This document shows, piece by piece, positions 1,694 through 42,069 of a stretch of 64,000 nucleotides of DNA (the stretch's first letter is position 1; every line of letters begins with the position of its first letter). The position numbers were made by a program, and so were the translations under genes. The notes under the pieces were generated by a model, which had not been told where the DNA came from, did no database searches, and saw only the letters and a program-made list of their open reading frames with translations. The stretch lies in NCBI RefSeq assembly GCF_055900595.2, contig NZ_CM148325.1, one strand, 5' to 3'.

Positions 1694-3355
1694 TTACGCC
1701 GCAAGCAGTTCTTTCGCATTCGCCAGTGTGTTACGTGTGACTTCACTGCCACCAAGCAGGCGCGCCAGCTCTTGTAACCGCGCTTTTTTGTCCAGCGACT
1801 CCATATGCGTTTCTGTCATCGCACCATCGGTTTCTTTGCTGACAAAATAGTGTTGATGACCACATCCCGCGACTTGTGGCAGGTGGGTAACACACATCAC
1901 CTGAGTTGATTCGCCGAGTTGACGCAGCAGTTTGCCGACAACTGCCGCTGTTGGACCGCTAATCCCTACATCCACTTCATCAAAAATCAGTGCCGGGGTT
2001 TCCATTTTACGCGCTGTGATGACCTGAATTGCCAATGCGATGCGGGACAATTCACCACCAGATGCGACTTTGGCAATAGGCTGCATTGGCTGACCTGGGT
2101 TGGTGGTTACCCGAAACTCAATACGATCAGCGCCGTCAGCGCCCAGGTGATGCTCGTCAAATTTAACATCAATCGTAAACTGCCCATGCGGCATAGAGAG
2201 TGCATGCATACTGTCGGTGATCAGCTGTGCCAACTCATTTGCATAATGCTGGCGTTGCTGGTGTAACGCGCGCGCCGTTTCCAGTGCCTGCTGATGATGT
2301 TTCGTTACCGCCAGCGCGAGCGTTTCTTGTGAGTCGGCCTGATCGTCCAGTTGCTGCTGCTCTTCCAGTAGCGACTGGTAATACTGTGGCAATACCTCAG
2401 GGCTGACGTGATGTTTACGTGCCAGCGAAATCTGTTTTGAGATGCGCTGTTCAAGTTCAAACAGTCGGTTGGGATCGAGATCCAGACGATCGCAGTAGTG
2501 GCGCAGTTCGTCGCTGGCTTCAACAATCTGGATGGTAGCTTCTTCCAGCATATCAAGTACGCCGGACAGTTTGCTGTCCATGCCAATCAATTCGCTCACC
2601 AGTTGTTTAGCCGTGTAAAGCTGGCTTTGCAGGTTTGCGTCTTCGCCGTCGGCCATTAATGCCAATGCATTCTGGCTGGTGGTCAGTAATTGACCGCTGT
2701 TCGCCAGACGTTTGTACTCTTCGTCGATTTGCTCAAACTCTCCGGGCTGCGGATTAAATTCGTTAAGTTCTTTTAATTGGTATTGCAGCAGCTCCGCACG
2801 AGCGGCGCGTTCCTGACTTAACTGTTGATGATGAGCGAGGTCGCGGCAGCTTTGATGCCACAACTGATAACGTGCGGTCATTTCCTGAAGCAGAGAGGTT
2901 TCATTAGCATAGCCATCAAGCAGGAATTTTTGGTGCTCGGGTTTGGTGAGTAATTGATGGGCGTGCTGACCATGGATCTGAATGAGCAACTGGCCCAGTT
3001 CGCGCAGTTGTGACAGTGGAACAGCTGTACCGTTGATAAAACCACGAGAGCGACCATCGCTACTGATTACGCGACGAAGCAGGCATTCACGGCCATCTTC
3101 CAGTTGGTTTTCTTCCAGCCAGCGCAGTGCTGCGGGTGTATCTTTCAGAGAAAAACGGGCGCACAGATCTGCGCGAGCAGCTCCGGTACGCACCATGTCG
3201 GCTTCAGCGCGACCGCCGAGACAAAGGCCCAGGGCATCTATTGCAATAGATTTACCCGCGCCAGTCTCGCCGGTGATTACGGTCATGCCGCTGTGAAAAT
3301 CAATCTCAAGCTCACGAACGATAGCAAAGTTGCTGATGGTCAGTTGTGCCAACAT
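1694..3355 (-). CDS. recN: DNA repair protein RecN (SMC-like ATPase)
   Basis: 553-aa ORF, Walker A GETGAGKS at N-terminus, RecN sequence. Confidence 0.95.
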
Positions 3356-3381
3356 AGTTGTTTTCCTGTATGAAAAACCAT

Positions 3382-3423
3382 TACTGTTATTGTGTACAGT
3401 ATAAACTGGTTTTATATACAGTA
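3382..3423 (-). promoter_or_regulatory. Two tandem LexA (SOS) boxes in the recN promoter
   Basis: tactgttattgtgtacagta (3382-3401) and actggttttatatacagta (3405-3423) fit CTGT-N8-ACAG, immediately upstream of recN start. Confidence 0.8.
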
Positions 3424-3440
3424 AAGAGGCTGGCGTAAAA

Positions 3441-5036
<1,596 letters not shown>

Positions 5037-5054
5037 TTTCTGCTTTCGTAATAA

Positions 5055-5085
5055 ATCACGGCCCAGCATGCGAATGCCGGGCCGT
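5055..5085. terminator. Bidirectional hairpin between convergent grpE and yfjD
   Basis: acggcccagcatgcgaatgccgggccgtttt: GC stem with flanking T-run. Confidence 0.6.
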
Positions 5086-5090
5086 TTTCG

Positions 5091-6353
5091 TTACTCCGCC
5101 ACACTCTCACGCAGCGGTTTCACAGGAAAAACTTTTACCTGCTTAATCATATTGTCCTGTACATCGAGAATATCGATATCGTACTCGCCAATACGCACGC
5201 GAGTTCCTGCGACAGGAATTTCTTCCAGTACTTCAAGAATGACGCCATTAACCGTGCGGGCATCATCTTCCGGTAGATGCCAGTTAAAGGCTTTGTTGAT
5301 TTCCCGCACGTTGGCAGTGCCATCGATAATCACCGAACCGTCGTTTTGCGGCGTGACCTCTTCGGCGAGCGTTGGCGACATCGACGTGGTGAAATCACCA
5401 ACAATCTCTTCGAGAATATCTTCGACCGTCACCAGCCCCTGAATGTCTCCATACTCGTTGACGACCAGGCCGACTTTCTTTTTGTTACGCTGAAACTTCA
5501 CCAACTGTGTGCTGAGCGGCGTACCCTCCGGGACAAAATAGATCTCGTCCGCGGCGCGTAGCATGGTTTCTTTGGTGAACTCTTTTTTCTCCGACATGAG
5601 TCGCCAGGCTTCACGCACACGCAGCATACTGATGGCGTCGTCCAGCGAGTCACGGTAGAGCACGATGCGTCCGTGAGGTGAGTGGGAGAGTTGGCGGAGA
5701 ATCGATTTCCAGTCATCGTTGATATCAATACCGATAATTTCACTACGTGGCACCATGATGTCATCGACGGTCATTTTTTCCAGATCGAGTACCGACAACA
5801 GCATATCCTGATTGCGACGGGAAATTTGTGACCGCGATTCGTGCACAATGGTGCGTAATTCTTCTTTGCTTAAAGAGCCACTGACCACGATATCGGTTTT
5901 GATGCCCATCATGCGCATTAACATGCGGGTAATAGCGTTTAGCAACCAGACCAGCGGCATCATCAAAATTTGCAGCGGTGCCAGCAGAAAACTACTTGGA
6001 TAGGCGACTTTTTCCGGGTACAGCGCGGCAATGGTTTTCGGCAATACTTCAGCAAAAACCAGTACGACAAAAGTAAGCACACCAGTCGCAATTGCCACGC
6101 CCGCATCCCCGTACAAACGCATCCCCACAATAGTGCCGAGCGCGGAGGCAAGAATATTGACCAGGTTATTGCCGATTAACACCAGGCTTATCAGGCGGTC
6201 TGGCTTACGCAGCAATTTTTCGACACGTTTGGCCGAGCGATTACCCTGTTTCGCCATATGCCGCAGACGATAGCGGTTGAGGGTCATCATTCCGGTTTCG
6301 GACCCGGAAAAATAGGCTGAAATGACCACCATGATGATCAGAATAATGATCAA
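5091..6353 (-). CDS. yfjD: Inner membrane protein YfjD (DUF21 transmembrane + CBS pair + CorC/HlyC transporter-associated domain)
   Basis: 420-aa ORF, hydrophobic N-terminus, recognised YfjD/CorB-like sequence. Confidence 0.88.
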   Translation of the reverse strand: MIIILIIMVVISAYFSGSETGMMTLNRYRLRHMAKQGNRSAKRVEKLLRKPDRLISLVLIGNNLVNILASALGTIVGMRLYGDAGVAIATGVLTFVVLVFAEVLPKTIAALYPEKVAYPSSFLLAPLQILMMPLVWLLNAITRMLMRMMGIKTDIVVSGSLSKEELRTIVHESRSQISRRNQDMLLSVLDLEKMTVDDIMVPRSEIIGIDINDDWKSILRQLSHSPHGRIVLYRDSLDDAISMLRVREAWRLMSEKKEFTKETMLRAADEIYFVPEGTPLSTQLVKFQRNKKKVGLVVNEYGDIQGLVTVEDILEEIVGDFTTSMSPTLAEEVTPQNDGSVIIDGTANVREINKAFNWHLPEDDARTVNGVILEVLEEIPVAGTRVRIGEYDIDILDVQDNMIKQVKVFPVKPLRESVAE

Positions 6354-17296: not shown

Positions 17297-17318
17297 AGTG
17301 TTGCCTTTTTGTTATCAA

Positions 17319-17349
17319 TAAAAAAGGCCCCCCGGTTTGGGAGGCCTTA
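17319..17349 (-). terminator. pheA attenuator terminator
   Basis: Minus-strand RNA AAGGCCTCCCAAACCGGGGGGCCTTTTTT between pheL and pheA. Confidence 0.8.
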
Positions 17350-17394
17350 TTGTTCGTCTTCGCATTCTGTTTCACACGACGAAACGCCTCCCAT

Positions 17395-17442
17395 TCAGGG
17401 GAAGGTAAAAAAGAATGCGAAGAAAAACGGTGTGTGTTTCAT
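17395..17442 (-). CDS. pheL: pheA leader peptide PheL (15 aa, Phe-rich)
   Basis: Minus-strand ATG at 17442 encodes [15 protein letters not shown]; not in ORF track because it is under 60 aa. Confidence 0.85.
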   Translation of the reverse strand: [15 protein letters not shown]

Positions 17443-17497
17443 GTTTGTTTCCTTAAGTGACTTCAGTACAGTACCCGTACTGTTTTCACGCTGTCAA

Positions 17498-17941: not shown

Positions 17942-18120
17942 TCAAAATGTGTGATGGAAATCTCATAATTTTGTCACTTTTTGTCAACGAATCTTTTTTG
18001 TGAGAAATCGCAGGAAGAGGTGTTTTTTTACTTGAGGAATATCTCAAAGCGAGCCATATTTGATGAGATCGATAGTGACTAAATCGCTTCAGTTTCACAA
18101 CTAACAGAATAAAAAAACGG

Positions 18121-18133
18121 CAGCTCAAGGCTG
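18121..18133. repeat. Left copy of the direct repeat flanking the IS4 element (putative target-site duplication)
   Basis: cagctcaaggctg here versus cagctcaagggctg at 19655-19668 (one G difference). Confidence 0.6.
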
Positions 18134-18146
18134 TAATGCCAGTCAG

Positions 18147-18858
18147 TTAAGCAACTGACTGGCTCTTTTTCGGGGCTGTGGGGTATTTCCAGGGCCTCTC
18201 CTTTACCACTCTCGGGAAGGCCCTTTCCCTTCTTGTCGGTAATTTCACTGGTTGTCCCATACTTGCAAGATCGCGCATCAGCTCCGGTATACGTCCCGGT
18301 GAAGCGCATGGCGTCCGTCATCGACGTCAGCAGATGGCTGGTCAGTTCCATCTGGCAGACCATTTTGACCTGCGGGTAGAGCGCCGGGTTCTCGGCATGT
18401 GTCTGGCGGGGGAAGGCTGCATCGTTCTCTGGTGTATCCGGTGTGCGCCAGAACACACCATCGATGGCCAGCAGGGTCAGGCCGCACCAGTGCGGATGCA
18501 GCGTGGCGTTATGCCAGAGCTGCGCTGTTTTCGTGAACACGCGTCGGACAGCCTCACTTCCCAGGCGCTGGCGGGCCTGAATAACGGCACTGGGGGCAAC
18601 GAAGGGGCGATTGCCTGGCAGCATGATGTCCAGGCGATTCACAATCTGGTGAAGAGGTTCTTTACGCTCAAGCGCCATGCCAACAATACACCAGACCATC
18701 ATTTCGAGGGGAAGACGGCGCTTGCGTAGCGTTACAGTACCTGATTCGGCAAGGCAACGAGAGATGAGTTCGGGGTCGAGGTAATCCCCCAGAAAAGTCA
18801 GTGGGTTACGCAGAGAATCGTAACGGGATACCAAATCAAGGGCCTGTCCAATGAGCAT
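18147..18858 (-). pseudogene. IS4 transposase (InsG-like) pseudogene: N-terminal ~175 aa intact, then internal deletions and frameshift
   Basis: MLIGQALDLVSRYDSLRNPL...HLLT then jumps to SMTDAMRF and loses frame; 259-aa ORF versus 442 aa for intact IS4 transposase (length recalled from memory). Confidence 0.75.
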
Positions 18859-18894
18859 AAATAAATATCCTCCGGCATAGCCGGAGGTTTTTCA

Positions 18895-19607
18895 AATGCG
18901 CCTGTAAGGCTCTGTTACCAGCCGCGCCCTAACAGGCGCATACGATCTGACATTTGCATTCAACTTCGTTACTTACGGCCCGTAAACGGGCTGCCCGGAT
19001 ATGGAATCGATAACTGCTCCCCCATTTTATCCTCTTCAAGCTGGTGCTTTATGTAGTCCTGTATCTTCGCCGTGTTCTTACCCACCGTATCGACATAGTA
19101 CCCTCGGCACCAGAACTCCCTGTTTCTGTATTTGAATTTCAAATCCCCAAACTGCTCGTAAAGCATCAGACTGCTTTTCCCTTTCAGATATCCCATAAAG
19201 CCGGATACGCTCATTTTGGGTGGGATTTCCACAAGCATATGGATATGATCTGCGCAGCACTCTGCTTCCAGAATCCGTACGCTTTTCCACTCACACAGCT
19301 TTCTCAAAATACTGCCTATCGCCCTACGCTTCTCTCCGTAAAACGCCAGTCTTCGGTATTTCGGCGCAAAAACTATGTGATATTTACAGTTCCAGCGGGT
19401 GTGCGCTAAGCTCTTTTCGTCCCCCATTGGGACCCCCTTTTGATTTCTTGTTTGACACTTGCAGTTGCCAGACCGCAAGGTGTTTTAACAAATCAAAAGG
19501 GGTTTTAATAACTGGCTCAAAGCTGAAAGCTTTCCGGAACCCCCAGCCTAGCTGGGGGTTTTCTGTGCACAAAAAAATCCGGAAACGAGTGAGCGTTTCC
19601 GGATTCT
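18895..19607 (-). mobile_element. IS200-like element (IS200/IS605 family), approx. 0.71 kb, boundaries +/- ~20 bp
   Basis: Contains Y1/HUH transposase tnpA, a terminator-like perfect palindrome near the left end (19577-19603), a 5'-UTR palindrome (19540-19558) and a 10-bp inverted repeat after the stop (18896-18905 / 18932-18941); extent inferred from expected IS4 leader length. Confidence 0.7.
18969..19427 (-). CDS. tnpA: IS200 transposase TnpA (Y1 HUH single-strand transposase)
   Basis: MGDEKSLAHTRWNCKYHIVFAPKYRR...HIHMLVEIPPK... 152 aa; the HxH (HIHML) motif is directly visible; ORF-track start at 19478 is an upstream extension. Confidence 0.9.
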   Translation of the reverse strand: MGDEKSLAHTRWNCKYHIVFAPKYRRLAFYGEKRRAIGSILRKLCEWKSVRILEAECCADHIHMLVEIPPKMSVSGFMGYLKGKSSLMLYEQFGDLKFKYRNREFWCRGYYVDTVGKNTAKIQDYIKHQLEEDKMGEQLSIPYPGSPFTGRK

Positions 19608-22273: not shown

Positions 22274-22334
22274 CCTAAAGAATCAAGACGATCCGGTACG
22301 CGTGATTTTCTTTTCACATTAATCTGGTCAATAA

Positions 22335-22364
22335 CCTTGAATAATTGAGGGATGACCTCATTTA
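22335..22364 (+). promoter_or_regulatory. Sigma-32 promoter of clpB
   Basis: ccttgaa (-35, 22335-22341) and cctcattta (-10, 22356-22364). Confidence 0.75.
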
Positions 22365-22402
22365 ATCTCCAGTAGCAACTTTGATCCGTTATGGGAGGAG
22401 TT

Positions 22403-24976
22403 ATGCGTCTGGATCGTCTTACTAATAAATTCCAGCTTGCTCTTGCCGATGCCCAATCACTTGCACTCGGGCACGACAACCAATTCATCGAACCACTTCA
22501 TTTAATGAGCGCCCTGCTGAATCAGGAAGGGGGTTCGGTTAGTCCTTTATTAACATCCGCCGGCATCAATGCTGGTCAGTTGCGCACAGATATCAATCAG
22601 GCATTAAATCGTTTACCGCAGGTTGAAGGCACTGGCGGCGATGTCCAGCCCTCACAGGATCTGGTGCGCGTTCTTAATCTTTGCGACAAGCTGGCGCAAA
22701 AACGTGGTGATAACTTTATCTCGTCAGAACTGTTCGTTCTGGCGGCACTTGAGTCTCGCGGCACGCTGGCCGACATCCTGAAAGCAGCAGGGGCGACCAC
22801 CGCCAACATTACTCAAGCGATTGAACAAATGCGTGGAGGTGAAAGCGTGAACGATCAAGGAGCTGAAGACCAACGTCAGGCTTTGAAAAAATACACTATC
22901 GACCTCACCGAACGAGCCGAACAAGGCAAACTCGATCCGGTGATTGGCCGTGATGAAGAAATTCGCCGTACCATTCAGGTACTGCAACGTCGTACTAAAA
23001 ATAACCCGGTGCTGATTGGTGAACCAGGCGTTGGTAAAACAGCCATCGTTGAAGGTCTGGCTCAGCGTATTATCAATGGCGAAGTGCCGGAAGGGTTGAA
23101 AGGCCGCCGCGTACTGGCGCTGGATATGGGCGCGCTGGTGGCTGGGGCGAAATATCGCGGTGAGTTTGAAGAGCGTTTAAAAGGCGTGCTTAACGATCTT
23201 GCCAAACAGGAAGGCAACGTCATCCTGTTTATCGACGAATTACATACCATGGTCGGCGCGGGTAAAGCCGATGGCGCAATGGATGCCGGCAACATGCTGA
23301 AACCGGCGCTGGCGCGTGGTGAATTGCACTGCGTAGGTGCCACGACACTGGACGAATATCGCCAGTACATCGAAAAAGATGCTGCGCTGGAACGTCGTTT
23401 CCAGAAAGTGTTTGTTGCCGAGCCAACCGTGGAAGACACCATTGCTATTCTGCGTGGCCTGAAAGAACGTTACGAACTGCACCACCATGTGCAAATTACT
23501 GACCCGGCAATTGTTGCAGCTGCGACATTATCTCATCGCTACATTGCTGACCGTCAGCTGCCGGATAAAGCCATCGACCTGATCGATGAAGCAGCATCCA
23601 GCATTCGTATGCAGATTGACTCAAAACCAGAAGAACTCGACCGACTCGATCGTCGTATCATCCAGCTCAAACTGGAACAACAGGCGTTAATGAAAGAGTC
23701 TGATGAAGCCAGTAAAAAACGCCTGGATATGCTCAACGAAGAACTGAGCGACAAAGAACGTCAGTATTCCGAGTTAGAAGAAGAGTGGAAAGCTGAGAAA
23801 GCGTCGCTTTCTGGTACGCAGACCATTAAAGCGGAACTGGAACAGGCGAAAATCGCCATTGAACAGGCTCGCCGTGTGGGTGATCTGGCGCGGATGTCTG
23901 AACTGCAATATGGCAAAATTCCAGAACTGGAAAAGCAACTGGAAGCCGCAACGCAGCTCGAAGGCAAAACTATGCGTCTCTTGCGTAATAAAGTGACCGA
24001 CGCCGAAATTGCTGAAGTGCTGGCGCGTTGGACGGGGATTCCGGTTTCTCGCATGATGGAAAGCGAGCGCGAAAAACTGCTGCGTATGGAGCAAGAGCTG
24101 CACCATCGCGTTATTGGTCAGAACGAAGCGGTTGATGCGGTATCTAACGCTATTCGTCGTAGCCGTGCGGGGCTTGCTGACCCGAATCGCCCGATTGGTT
24201 CATTCCTGTTCCTCGGCCCAACGGGTGTGGGGAAAACTGAGCTTTGTAAGGCGCTGGCGAACTTTATGTTTGATAGCGACGAGGCGATGGTCCGTATCGA
24301 TATGTCCGAGTTTATGGAGAAACACTCGGTGTCTCGTCTGGTTGGTGCGCCTCCGGGATATGTCGGTTATGAAGAAGGTGGCTACCTGACCGAAGCGGTG
24401 CGTCGTCGTCCGTATTCCGTCATCCTGCTGGATGAAGTGGAAAAAGCGCATCCGGATGTCTTCAACATTCTGTTGCAGGTACTGGATGATGGGCGTCTGA
24501 CTGACGGGCAGGGGAGAACGGTCGACTTCCGTAATACGGTTGTCATTATGACCTCTAACCTCGGTTCCGATTTGATTCAGGAACGCTTCGGTGAACTGGA
24601 TTATGCGCACATGAAAGAGCTGGTACTCGGTGTGGTAAGCCATAACTTCCGTCCGGAATTCATTAACCGTATCGATGAAGTGGTGGTCTTCCATCCGCTG
24701 GGTGAACAGCACATTGCGTCGATTGCGCAGATTCAGTTGAAACGTCTGTACAAACGTCTGGAAGAACGTGGTTATGAAATCCACATTTCTGACGAGGCGC
24801 TGAAACTGCTGAGCGAGAACGGTTACGATCCGGTCTATGGTGCACGTCCTCTGAAACGTGCTATCCAGCAGCAGATCGAAAACCCGCTGGCACAGCAAAT
24901 ACTGTCTGGTGAATTGGTTCCGGGTAAAGTTATTCGCCTGGAAGTTAATGAAGACAGGATTGTCGCCGTCCAGTAA
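22403..24976 (+). CDS. clpB: Chaperone ClpB (Hsp100 disaggregase)
   Basis: [27 protein letters not shown]... 857 aa, two AAA+ modules; ORF-track 22391 start is 4 codons upstream. Confidence 0.96.
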
Positions 24977-30762: not shown

Positions 30763-32061
30763 ATGGCTGAAAGTACTGTAACGGCAGACAGCAAACTGAC
30801 AAGTAGTGATACTCGTCGCCGCATTTGGGCAATTGTGGGGGCCTCTTCAGGTAATTTGGTCGAGTGGTTCGATTTCTATGTCTACTCGTTCTGTTCACTC
30901 TACTTCGCCCACATCTTCTTCCCTTCCGGAAACACGACGACTCAACTACTGCAAACAGCAGGTGTTTTTGCTGCGGGATTTCTGATGCGCCCAATAGGCG
31001 GTTGGCTATTTGGCCGCATAGCCGATAAACATGGTCGCAAAAAATCGATGCTATTATCGGTGTGTATGATGTGTTTCGGCTCACTGGTTATCGCCTGTTT
31101 GCCAGGCTACGAAACAATCGGTACCTGGGCTCCGGCATTATTGCTTCTCGCTCGTTTATTCCAGGGATTATCCGTTGGCGGAGAATATGGCACCAGCGCC
31201 ACCTATATGAGTGAAGTTGCCGTTGAAGGGCGCAAAGGTTTTTACGCATCATTTCAGTATGTGACGTTGATCGGCGGGCAACTGCTAGCTCTACTGGTTG
31301 TCGTGGTTTTACAACACACCATGGAAGACGCTGCACTCAGAGAGTGGGGATGGCGTATTCCTTTCGCGTTAGGAGCTGTGTTAGCTGTTGTGGCGTTGTG
31401 GTTACGTCGTCAGTTAGATGAAACTTCACAACAAGAAACACGCGCTTTAAAAGAAGCTGGATCTCTGAAAGGATTATGGCGCAATCGCCGTGCATTCATC
31501 ATGGTTCTCGGTTTTACCGCTGCGGGCTCCCTTTGTTTCTATACCTTCACCACTTATATGCAGAAGTATCTGGTAAATACTGCGGGAATGCATGCCAACG
31601 TGGCGAGTGGCATTATGACTGCCGCATTGTTTGTATTCATGCTTATTCAACCACTTATTGGCGCGCTGTCGGATAAGATTGGTCGTCGTACCTCAATGTT
31701 ATGTTTCGGTTCTTTGGCAACCATTTTTACCGTTCCTATTCTCTCAGCATTGCAGAACGTATCTTCGCCTTATGCCGCTTTTGGTCTAGTGATGTGCGCC
31801 CTGCTGATAGTGAGTTTTTATACTTCAATCAGTGGAATACTGAAGGCTGAAATGTTCCCGGCCCAGGTTCGCGCATTAGGTGTTGGTCTGTCGTATGCCG
31901 TCGCTAATGCGATATTTGGTGGCTCAGCAGAGTACGTAGCGTTGTCGCTGAAATCAATAGGAATGGAAACAGCCTTCTTCTGGTATGTGACCTTGATGGC
32001 CGTGGTGGCGTTTCTGGTTTCTTTGATGCTACATCGCAAAGGGAAGGGGATGCGCCTTTAA
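30763..32061 (+). CDS. kgtP: Alpha-ketoglutarate permease (MFS transporter)
   Basis: [28 protein letters not shown]... 432 aa; ORF-track 30670 start is an upstream extension. Confidence 0.93.
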
Positions 32062-40497: not shown

Positions 40498-41085
40498 TTA
40501 ACAGAAAATGCGCACCGCGCAATAGACCAGCAACAACGCCAGCACGATATTTAACTGGCGACCATACTGGCGAAACAATCGCTGAAACAGGTGCCCCGCC
40601 AGCGCCCAGCACACATTGCCAAAGGTCCCAATCATTGCCAGCAAAACGCTGACGCCAATCACCCAGCTTAACGCCTGCGTTTGTGGCAGGACAAATGTCG
40701 ACAGTGCTGTAATGCCGTACAAAATAATTTTGACGTTCACAAACTGCAAAGCAAAGCTGGCCCAAAAGCTGATCGGTTTGGCCTGAAGTCCGTCTTCCTT
40801 GGTTGGACTGGTAGCGATTTTCCACGCCAGCCAGACAATATATGCTGCTCCTGCCCAACTCAAAAGGTGCACCGCTGCCGGGTCGATAACAGCCAGTGAA
40901 AATGAAATTCCTGCACACAGTAACATCACAATCAAAAATCCCAGACTCATCCCTGCCAGCACGCGGGTACTCCGACGAAATCCATGCGACGTGGCAGAGC
41001 TAAGAGCGAGTATATTGTTTGGTCCTGGCGTCAGGGCGGTAATCAGGGTGTAGGTCCAAAAAGCACTTAAAAGGGTCGGTGTCAC
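40498..41085 (-). CDS. eamB: Cysteine/O-acetylserine efflux protein EamB (YfiK), LysE/RhtB family
   Basis: 195-aa polytopic membrane ORF. Confidence 0.9.
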   Translation of the reverse strand: MTPTLLSAFWTYTLITALTPGPNNILALSSATSHGFRRSTRVLAGMSLGFLIVMLLCAGISFSLAVIDPAAVHLLSWAGAAYIVWLAWKIATSPTKEDGLQAKPISFWASFALQFVNVKIILYGITALSTFVLPQTQALSWVIGVSVLLAMIGTFGNVCWALAGHLFQRLFRQYGRQLNIVLALLLVYCAVRIFC

Positions 41086-41187
41086 TTGTTATCTCCTCTG
41101 TTTTGGTAGACAGTACCCGACACGAAACATTTAAAAAAATGAATGTTTTCACATTCTAAATTCGATATTTTCGATAGGTTTGGAGTT

Positions 41188-42069
41188 ATGGATCTGCGCC
41201 GTTTTATTACGCTTAAAACCGTGGTGGAAGAGGGTTCCTTTTTGCGAGCTTCGCAAAAATTGTGTTGCACACAATCGACGGTGACTTTTCATATTCAGCA
41301 GCTTGAACAGGAGTTCTCAGTACAATTGTTTGAGAAAATTGGCCGACGGATGTGCCTCACTCGCGAAGGCAAAAAGTTGCTGCCGCACATCTATGAACTC
41401 ACCAGAGTGATGGATACGCTTCGTGAGGCTGCCAAAAAAGAGTCTGATCCGGACGGAGAACTGCGCGTTGTTTCAGGCGAAACGCTGCTCTCTTACCGAA
41501 TGCCGCAGGTGTTGCAGCGTTTTCGGCAACGTGCACCAAAAGTGCGTTTATCACTGCAGTCGCTGAACTGTTACGTGATCCGTGATGCTCTACTGAATGA
41601 TGAGGCCGATGTCGGTGTTTTTTATCGCGTAGGAAATGATGATGCTCTGAATCGACGAGAATTGGGTGAACAATCGCTGGTGCTGGTGGCTTCACCGCAA
41701 ATTGCAGATGTCGATTTTACTCAGCCTGGAAGACATAACGCCTGTAGCTTTATTATCAACGAACCACAATGTGTCTTCCGGCAGATATTTGAGAGCACGC
41801 TGCGCCAGCGGCGGATCACGGTGGAAAATACCATTGAGCTTATAAGCATTGAAAGCATCAAGCGTTGTGTCGCGGCGAATATCGGGGTCAGTTACCTGCC
41901 GCGCTTTGCAGTGGCAAATGAACTTGCGAGTGGCGAATTAATCGAATTGCCTTTTGGCGAACAGTCGCAGACCATTACGGCAATGTGCGCTCACCATGCC
42001 GGGAAAGCGGTTAGCCCGGCGATGCACACTTTTATTCAGTGTGTTGAAGAGTGTTTTTTGCCGGGATAA
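41188..42069 (+). CDS. yfiE: LysR-family transcriptional regulator YfiE
   Basis: MDLRRFITLKTVVEEGSFLRASQKL... HTH N-terminus, 293 aa; divergent from eamB. Confidence 0.88.
   Translation: MDLRRFITLKTVVEEGSFLRASQKLCCTQSTVTFHIQQLEQEFSVQLFEKIGRRMCLTREGKKLLPHIYELTRVMDTLREAAKKESDPDGELRVVSGETLLSYRMPQVLQRFRQRAPKVRLSLQSLNCYVIRDALLNDEADVGVFYRVGNDDALNRRELGEQSLVLVASPQIADVDFTQPGRHNACSFIINEPQCVFRQIFESTLRQRRITVENTIELISIESIKRCVAANIGVSYLPRFAVANELASGELIELPFGEQSQTITAMCAHHAGKAVSPAMHTFIQCVEECFLPG

Follow-up and report, generated by a model that had tools for sequence, protein, structure and literature searches.

How is recN controlled from the short spacer that separates it from nadK, and how many LexA-binding sites does that spacer hold? 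An initial annotation of this region had proposed tandem LexA boxes directly upstream of recN, and with them tight SOS repression of the gene. We therefore located the boxes, scored them against known LexA sites, placed them relative to the recN promoter and compared the arrangement with that of other species. In our reading, the segment 3364-3423 is almost certainly the SOS operator-promoter of recN, with three sites for LexA dimers.

The nadK-recN spacer and its three LexA boxes

The window, a 64-kb stretch of DNA that was analysed as a whole, comes from an E. coli chromosome. The 85-bp spacer under study (3356-3440, 32% G+C) lies between two minus-strand genes:

1694..3355, minus strand: recN, the regulated gene; 553 aa, ATG at 3355..3353
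3441..4319, minus strand: nadK; NCBIfam NAD(+) kinase, 567 bits; stop codon 3441-3443

Downstream of recN is bamE, and grpE is divergent from nadK. The recN product matches the NCBIfam RecN equivalog profile NF008121 / PRK10869 over its full length with 1067 bits, and the annotation of E. coli genomes carries the same label. The nadK|recN junction is found in nearly every complete E. coli genome, a 201-bp query around the site matching 5425 of 5426. Alignment with K-12 MG1655 (NC_000913.3) over 141 bases around the spacer revealed one difference, outside all boxes, which identifies 3356-3440 as the E. coli recN control region. The differing base, window position 3359, is located between the Shine-Dalgarno sequence and the recN ATG and is A here and G in K-12. 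The position is polymorphic, with both alleles present among the sampled E. coli strains and A in E. albertii.

LexA-type palindromes are indeed present directly upstream of the recN start codon, at 3364-3423:

3423..3404, minus strand: LexA box 1 (distal), TACTGTATATAAAACCAGTT; core 3406-3421, CTGT-N8-CCAG
3401..3382, minus strand: LexA box 2 (middle), TACTGTACACAATAACAGTA; core 3384-3399, exact CTGT-N8-ACAG
3383..3364, minus strand: LexA box 3 (proximal, weak), TAATGGTTTTTCATACAGGA; core 3366-3381, left arm ATGG, not CTGT

On the recN strand, with boxes 1 and 2 in square brackets and box 3 in parentheses, the spacer reads:

TAA(nadK stop) TTTTACGCCAGCCTC TT[TACTGTATATAAAACCAGTT]TA[TACTGTACACAATAACAG(TA]ATGGTTTTTCATACAGGA) AAACAACT ATG

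This anatomy departs in part from the one first described, which had two strong CTGT-N8-ACAG palindromes 3 bp apart. Box 2 is such an exact palindrome; box 1 has CCAG as its right arm (CTGG-N8-ACAG on the plus strand). The distance of 3 bp does not hold: the 16-bp cores of boxes 1 and 2 are 6 bp apart, their 20-mers 2 bp apart and their centres 22 bp apart. The weaker third half-match is real, but it had been placed at 3366-3385, an interval that runs into box 2 since the 20-mer of box 3 is 3364-3383. Boxes 2 and 3 overlap by 2 nt with their centres 18 bp apart, and the three boxes end 48 (box 1), 26 (box 2) and 8 nt (box 3) before the recN ATG.

A strict consensus search with TACTGTATATATATACAGTA, allowing up to three mismatches, found no match anywhere in the window. 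Because real boxes depart from the idealised consensus at more positions than this, we scored the window with a symmetrised weight matrix built from 16 LexA sites of PMC3009722 Table 4, leaving out the recN entry. The three recN boxes obtained the three highest scores among 63,981 window positions: box 1 ranks first with 25.1 bits and a heterology index (HI) of 4.1, box 2 second with 17.6 bits (HI 9.2) and box 3 third with 13.5 bits (HI 12.2). Thus, the imperfect box 1 outscores the exact box 2. The best site elsewhere in the window ranks fourth with 12.3 bits. The training sites span 14.1-28.4 bits (HI 1.8-11.7), a range that includes boxes 1 and 2, with box 3 falling just under the weakest training site, polB.

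The consensus of the gammaproteobacterial LexA operator is TACTG(TA)5CAGTA with an invariant CTG-N10-CAG (PMC11228462). This invariant element is present in box 1 (CTGTATATAAAACCAG) and box 2 (CTGTACACAATAACAG); box 3 (ATGGTTTTTCATACAG) is alone in lacking it, because it reads ATG-N10-CAG. The recN motif listed in PMC3009722 Table 4 is the same 20-mer as box 1, and PMC11228462 quotes an HI of 3.5 by Courcelle for recN.

Several further features of the window were noted in passing. A DUF6630-family gene located between grpE and yfjD in strain 2013C-4282 is absent from the window (5024-5089, against 5024-5792 in locus L125), and its presence or absence corresponds to an indel of ~700 bp between E. 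coli strains. In the raiA-bamD interval (about 18079-19564), an IS200-like element of ~695 bp adjoins a truncated IS4 transposase gene; strain 2013C-4282 lacks the IS200-like segment at the corresponding place. The features of this interval are:

18079..18858: truncated IS4 transposase gene, Nterm_IS4
18969..19478, minus strand: Y1 transposase ORF in the IS200-like element; Pfam Y1_Tnp, 126 bits
19437-19560, minus strand: STnc490 (Rfam) in the IS200-like element, 146 bits

The Phe leader upstream of pheA (17318-17443, 132 bits) and the RyfD sRNA upstream of clpB (22284-22422, 125 bits) are ordinary Rfam matches.

Promoter geometry and the proposed mode of repression

A promoter scan of 3200-3650 returned a sole sigma-70-like site, on the recN strand, matching 9 of 12 consensus positions. 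Together with the Shine-Dalgarno sequence, which was read from the sequence, its elements are:

3425..3420, minus strand: predicted -35 TTTACT, 4/6 to TTGACA
3403..3398, minus strand: predicted -10 TATACT, 5/6 to TATAAT, after a 16-nt spacer
3364..3367, minus strand: Shine-Dalgarno AGGA, 8 nt before the recN ATG

The predicted -35 and -10 hexamers overlap boxes 1 and 2, as expected if the palindromes belong to the recN promoter. The last 4 nt of the predicted -35 are the first four bases (TACT) of box 1, which goes on to span the entire promoter spacer; likewise, the last 4 nt of the predicted -10 are the first four bases (TACT) of box 2, which also spans the predicted transcription start. Because each hexamer is made up of two bases plus the initial TACT of a box, the boxes are spaced by the same 22 bp as the hexamers (16 + 6). 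The two promoter-box units are identical at 16 of 22 bases, counted by eye. Judged from the -10 hexamer, transcription would start at about 3390-3392, within box 2. The Cappable-seq and Kim 2012 tables list no start-site entry for the recN locus. Box 3 is downstream of the predicted start, and the Shine-Dalgarno AGGA lies inside its right arm (ACAGGA).

LexA dimers bind SOS boxes and repress the genes behind them until a RecA-ssDNA filament brings about LexA self-cleavage and derepression (PMC11228462). At recN, both predicted hexamers, the spacer between them and the start point would lie under LexA bound to boxes 1 and 2, and RNA polymerase would be excluded by promoter occlusion. A third dimer, bound more weakly at box 3, would sit over the leader and the ribosome-binding site. 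The outcome would be a tight off state and a large induction, as reported for recN. We infer the occlusion, and likewise any cooperativity between the dimers and any contribution of box 3.

The recN -35 is only 15 nt downstream of the nadK stop codon (window 3426-3443). A terminator scan of 3200-3650 returned 0 sites, with no terminator-like hairpin between nadK and the recN promoter, and transcripts of nadK presumably run into the LexA-occupied recN operator. That nadK has no terminator ahead of the recN promoter is a mildly new observation.

Conservation of the operator across species

Of 5425 complete E. coli genomes, 5357 share the 62-bp operator-promoter (3364-3425) without a change, and the remaining 68 differ by 1-3 bases. 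The most divergent E. coli variant sampled, SI-NP020, has a single inner-spacer change in box 1 and another in box 2, with no change in the CTGT, CCAG and ACAG arms. Other differences in the sampled strains affect nadK codons, position 3359 or the bases ahead of the -35.

For a comparison between species, we collected recN loci by a pattern for the RecN N-terminus (MLAQLTI.NFAIV), taking one genome per species. The resulting set of at least 120 loci comprises Enterobacterales of several families, Aeromonas and Plesiomonas; 116 of the listed loci have enough upstream DNA. Among these listed matches, 105 of 116 species have two 20-mers of at least 10 bits at an offset of exactly 22 nt, and at 75 of the 116 loci both boxes of the pair reach at least 15 bits. 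Across the same 116 listed loci, box pairs occur at an offset of 23 in 6 and at an offset of 18, the distance between boxes 2 and 3, in 26; none occurs at offsets of 19-21 or 24-26. Both hexamers, TTTACT and TATACT, are invariant in all 105 listed species with the 22-nt pair.

The boxes themselves vary between species, with 30 distinct sequences for box 1 and 58 for box 2 among the matches listed. There, information content peaks in the TACTGT and CAG arms, and the interiors are variable. Among the matches listed, which give 111 distinct orthologous operators, box 1 scores at least 10 bits in 108, and ACAGGA or ACAGGT, the right arm of box 3 with the Shine-Dalgarno sequence, is kept across the listed species. 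The listed species show conserved arms around free interiors, the pattern of a LexA operator. This is the footprint expected of a protein-binding palindrome and not of recent common descent.

Individual lineages depart from this layout. In three Rosenbergiella species (L011, L028 and L109) box 1 is lost (TTTACTCAGTAAAAAAGA..., negative score); these species retain both the -35 TTTACT and the -10, as well as a box 2 that is very strong (23-25 bits). In Cedecea neteri (L068) and Enterobacter sp. Cy-643 (L076), a repeat of ~125 bp separates box 2 from the Shine-Dalgarno sequence of recN; it occupies roughly 20-145 nt before the recN ATG and replaces the left arm of box 3. We take this repeat to resemble the enterobacterial ERIC/IRU element. 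With no boxes within 130 nt of the ATG, these two loci could be mistaken for cases of box loss, an explanation that we rejected: the inserted repeat displaces boxes 1 and 2, which are intact together with the promoter hexamers. Since box 2 ends 148-149 nt from the ATG, recN would have a long structured leader in both species.

A further kind of variation concerns boxes 2 and 3. Many species of Pantoea, Erwinia, Winslowiella, Mixta and related genera (e.g. loci L013, L031, L048, L075 and L097) have a degenerate box 2 (TACTGTATGAAAAACCATAT, 11.8 bits). In Pantoea, Erwinia and related genera, where box 2 has decayed, the position of box 3 holds a canonical CTGT-N8-ACAG of 14-18 bits; elsewhere the reverse is found. 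Over the 111 distinct listed sequences the scores of the two boxes are anticorrelated (Spearman -0.42, phylogeny ignored). Exactly two boxes reach at least 12 bits in 89 of the 111 distinct operator sequences among the matches listed, and 7 of the 111, E. coli among them, have three strong boxes. The anticorrelation and the count of two strong boxes are mildly new, and concern other species only.

Alternative readings of the palindromes

Palindromes in a promoter of 32% G+C might be chance features of AT-rich DNA or the site of a different regulator, and the strict CTGT-N8-ACAG motif by itself shows just a mild excess in the window, where 3 matches occur, one of them near recN (3384-3399), and 0.63 would be expected by chance. 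The matrix separates the boxes from this background. In 300 dinucleotide-preserving shuffles of the window, we counted on average 0.22 sites of at least 13.5 bits and 0.013 of at least 17.5 bits; no site reached 25 bits and two sites never fell within 60 bp of each other. When the AT-rich spacer alone was shuffled 5000 times, 0.7% of the shuffles reached 13.5 bits at least once and none held three sites. The first three matrix ranks, these shuffles and the preservation of arms and spacing, with varied interiors, in more than 100 species among the matches listed refute chance or another regulator, to which we assign next to no probability. The palindromes could also act in RNA, as a hairpin in nadK read-through transcripts that terminates nadK or masks the recN ribosome-binding site. 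Folding the minus strand of 3340-3460 as RNA gives -25.2 kcal/mol (z = -2.98); box 1 forms a stem with box 3, box 2 pairs within itself, and the inner stems are followed by a U-run. The nadK-recN interval offers no terminator-like site. However, the z-score is explained by the self-complementarity inherent in any group of palindromic LexA boxes, and the stems are AT-rich. The 111 distinct listed orthologues show no covariation (7 two-sided pair changes, against 6-12 in controls with the partner slid by 1-3 columns), and RNAalifold found no consensus structure (-0.7 kcal/mol). We therefore rejected a hairpin or terminator role, which is very improbable, as a by-product of the DNA palindromes.

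More weight attaches to the possibility that only boxes 1 and 2 are functional and that box 3 is a chance half-match, formed by the conserved ribosome-binding site (ACAGGA) beside a T-rich leader. Box 3 has ATGG in place of a CTG-containing left arm, and its score of 13.5 bits here drops to just 9.2 bits in many listed species. Most distinct listed operators have two boxes of at least 12 bits and no third, as counted above, and FIMO missed box 3 in Salmonella (PMC8072944). The Shine-Dalgarno sequence, 8 nt before the ATG, is the AGGA of its right arm, and the ribosome-binding site thus confounds the conservation of this arm. Conversely, box 3 is still the third-best site in 64 kb, its score is attained in few of the spacer shuffles, published descriptions include it as the third SOS box (PMC10714372, PMC8072944), and the canonical palindromes of Pantoea, Erwinia and related genera occupy the same position. 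On balance, we consider a non-functional box 3 unlikely, though by far the most serious of these alternatives. Operator function of box 3 is the least secure part of the three-site reading, because its conserved half coincides with the Shine-Dalgarno sequence.

The trade-off between boxes 2 and 3 raises the further idea that selection across Enterobacterales acts on the LexA load of the whole recN operator and not on single sites. We put this forward tentatively, as a rather doubtful proposal. Linked to it, box 3, lying past the start site, may serve as a roadblock to read-through from the terminator-less nadK. The anticorrelation may also reflect only one or two ancestral events.

Two other exact CTGT-N8-ACAG matches occur in the window. 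The fourth-ranking site, 41096-41115 (CTCTGTTTTGGTAGACAGTA, 12.3 bits), is located between the divergent genes

40498..41085, minus strand: eamB, LysE-family exporter
41143..42069, plus strand: yfiE, LysR-family regulator

and is more plausibly explained as an operator of LysR type than as a LexA site. The match at 30774-30793 (9.6 bits) falls within kgtP, some 20-30 nt into the coding sequence as placed by mapping to strain 2013C-4282, and is probably due to chance.

Comparison with known SOS operators

The recN operator is an ordinary, textbook SOS operator that was already known. It was reportedly described by Rostas et al. in 1987 (cited in PMC10714372), said to be the primary footprinting paper. 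The finding at this locus accordingly carries little weight as a discovery, and it is useful as a positive control for the scan. What it adds is a corrected anatomy, with the perfect palindrome, the spacing and the strand set right, and the observation that the last four bases of either predicted promoter hexamer come from a LexA box, which ties the invariant 22-bp spacing to promoter geometry.

Published work agrees with this assignment. Three SOS boxes have been assigned to the E. coli recN promoter (PMC10714372), which is in use as a standard SOS reporter (PMC13076628). The gene is strongly induced by UV (PMC3009722), 19-fold by AZT with a 36-fold lexA dependence (PMC11228462), and in Salmonella 39-fold by nalidixic acid (PMC8072944). 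Reg-Seq mass-mutagenesis reporters of the K-12 recN promoter displayed a repressor footprint in glucose that was gone with H2O2 (PMC12133099). Taken together, the identity of RecN, the match to K-12, the matrix ranks, the predicted promoter overlap and the published SOS boxes and induction bear out LexA/SOS control of recN. The interpretation given in the initial annotation is thus supported, and its description of the sequence was partly inexact as regards the perfect palindrome and the spacing.

The closest relatives of this operator are those of recN itself. In K-12 MG1655 (b2616), the boxes, hexamers, Shine-Dalgarno sequence and all spacings are base-for-base the same as here, the single substitution being the G at window 3359 where the window has A. 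In Salmonella enterica serovar Typhimurium, the boxes lie 8, 26 and 48 bp from the recN ATG, the same distances as here, and the third is weak (PMC8072944 Table 1). S. enterica subsp. arizonae (L078) has boxes at the same three distances as E. coli; in contrast to E. coli, its highest-scoring box is the middle one (24.4 bits), and its box 3, at 9.2 bits, scores less than that of E. coli. The box interiors of Salmonella differ from those here.

Outside recN, the operators of the lexA gene resemble this one in having adjacent LexA boxes over a sigma-70 promoter, about two helical turns apart. We take the lexA spacing to be 21 bp, as read from the sequences of PMC3009722, against 22 bp in recN here. 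The number of boxes also differs, lexA having two (sequences in PMC3009722 Tables 4 and 7) and recN three, and so does the response: lexA is induced 1.8-fold whereas recN is induced 19-fold (PMC11228462).
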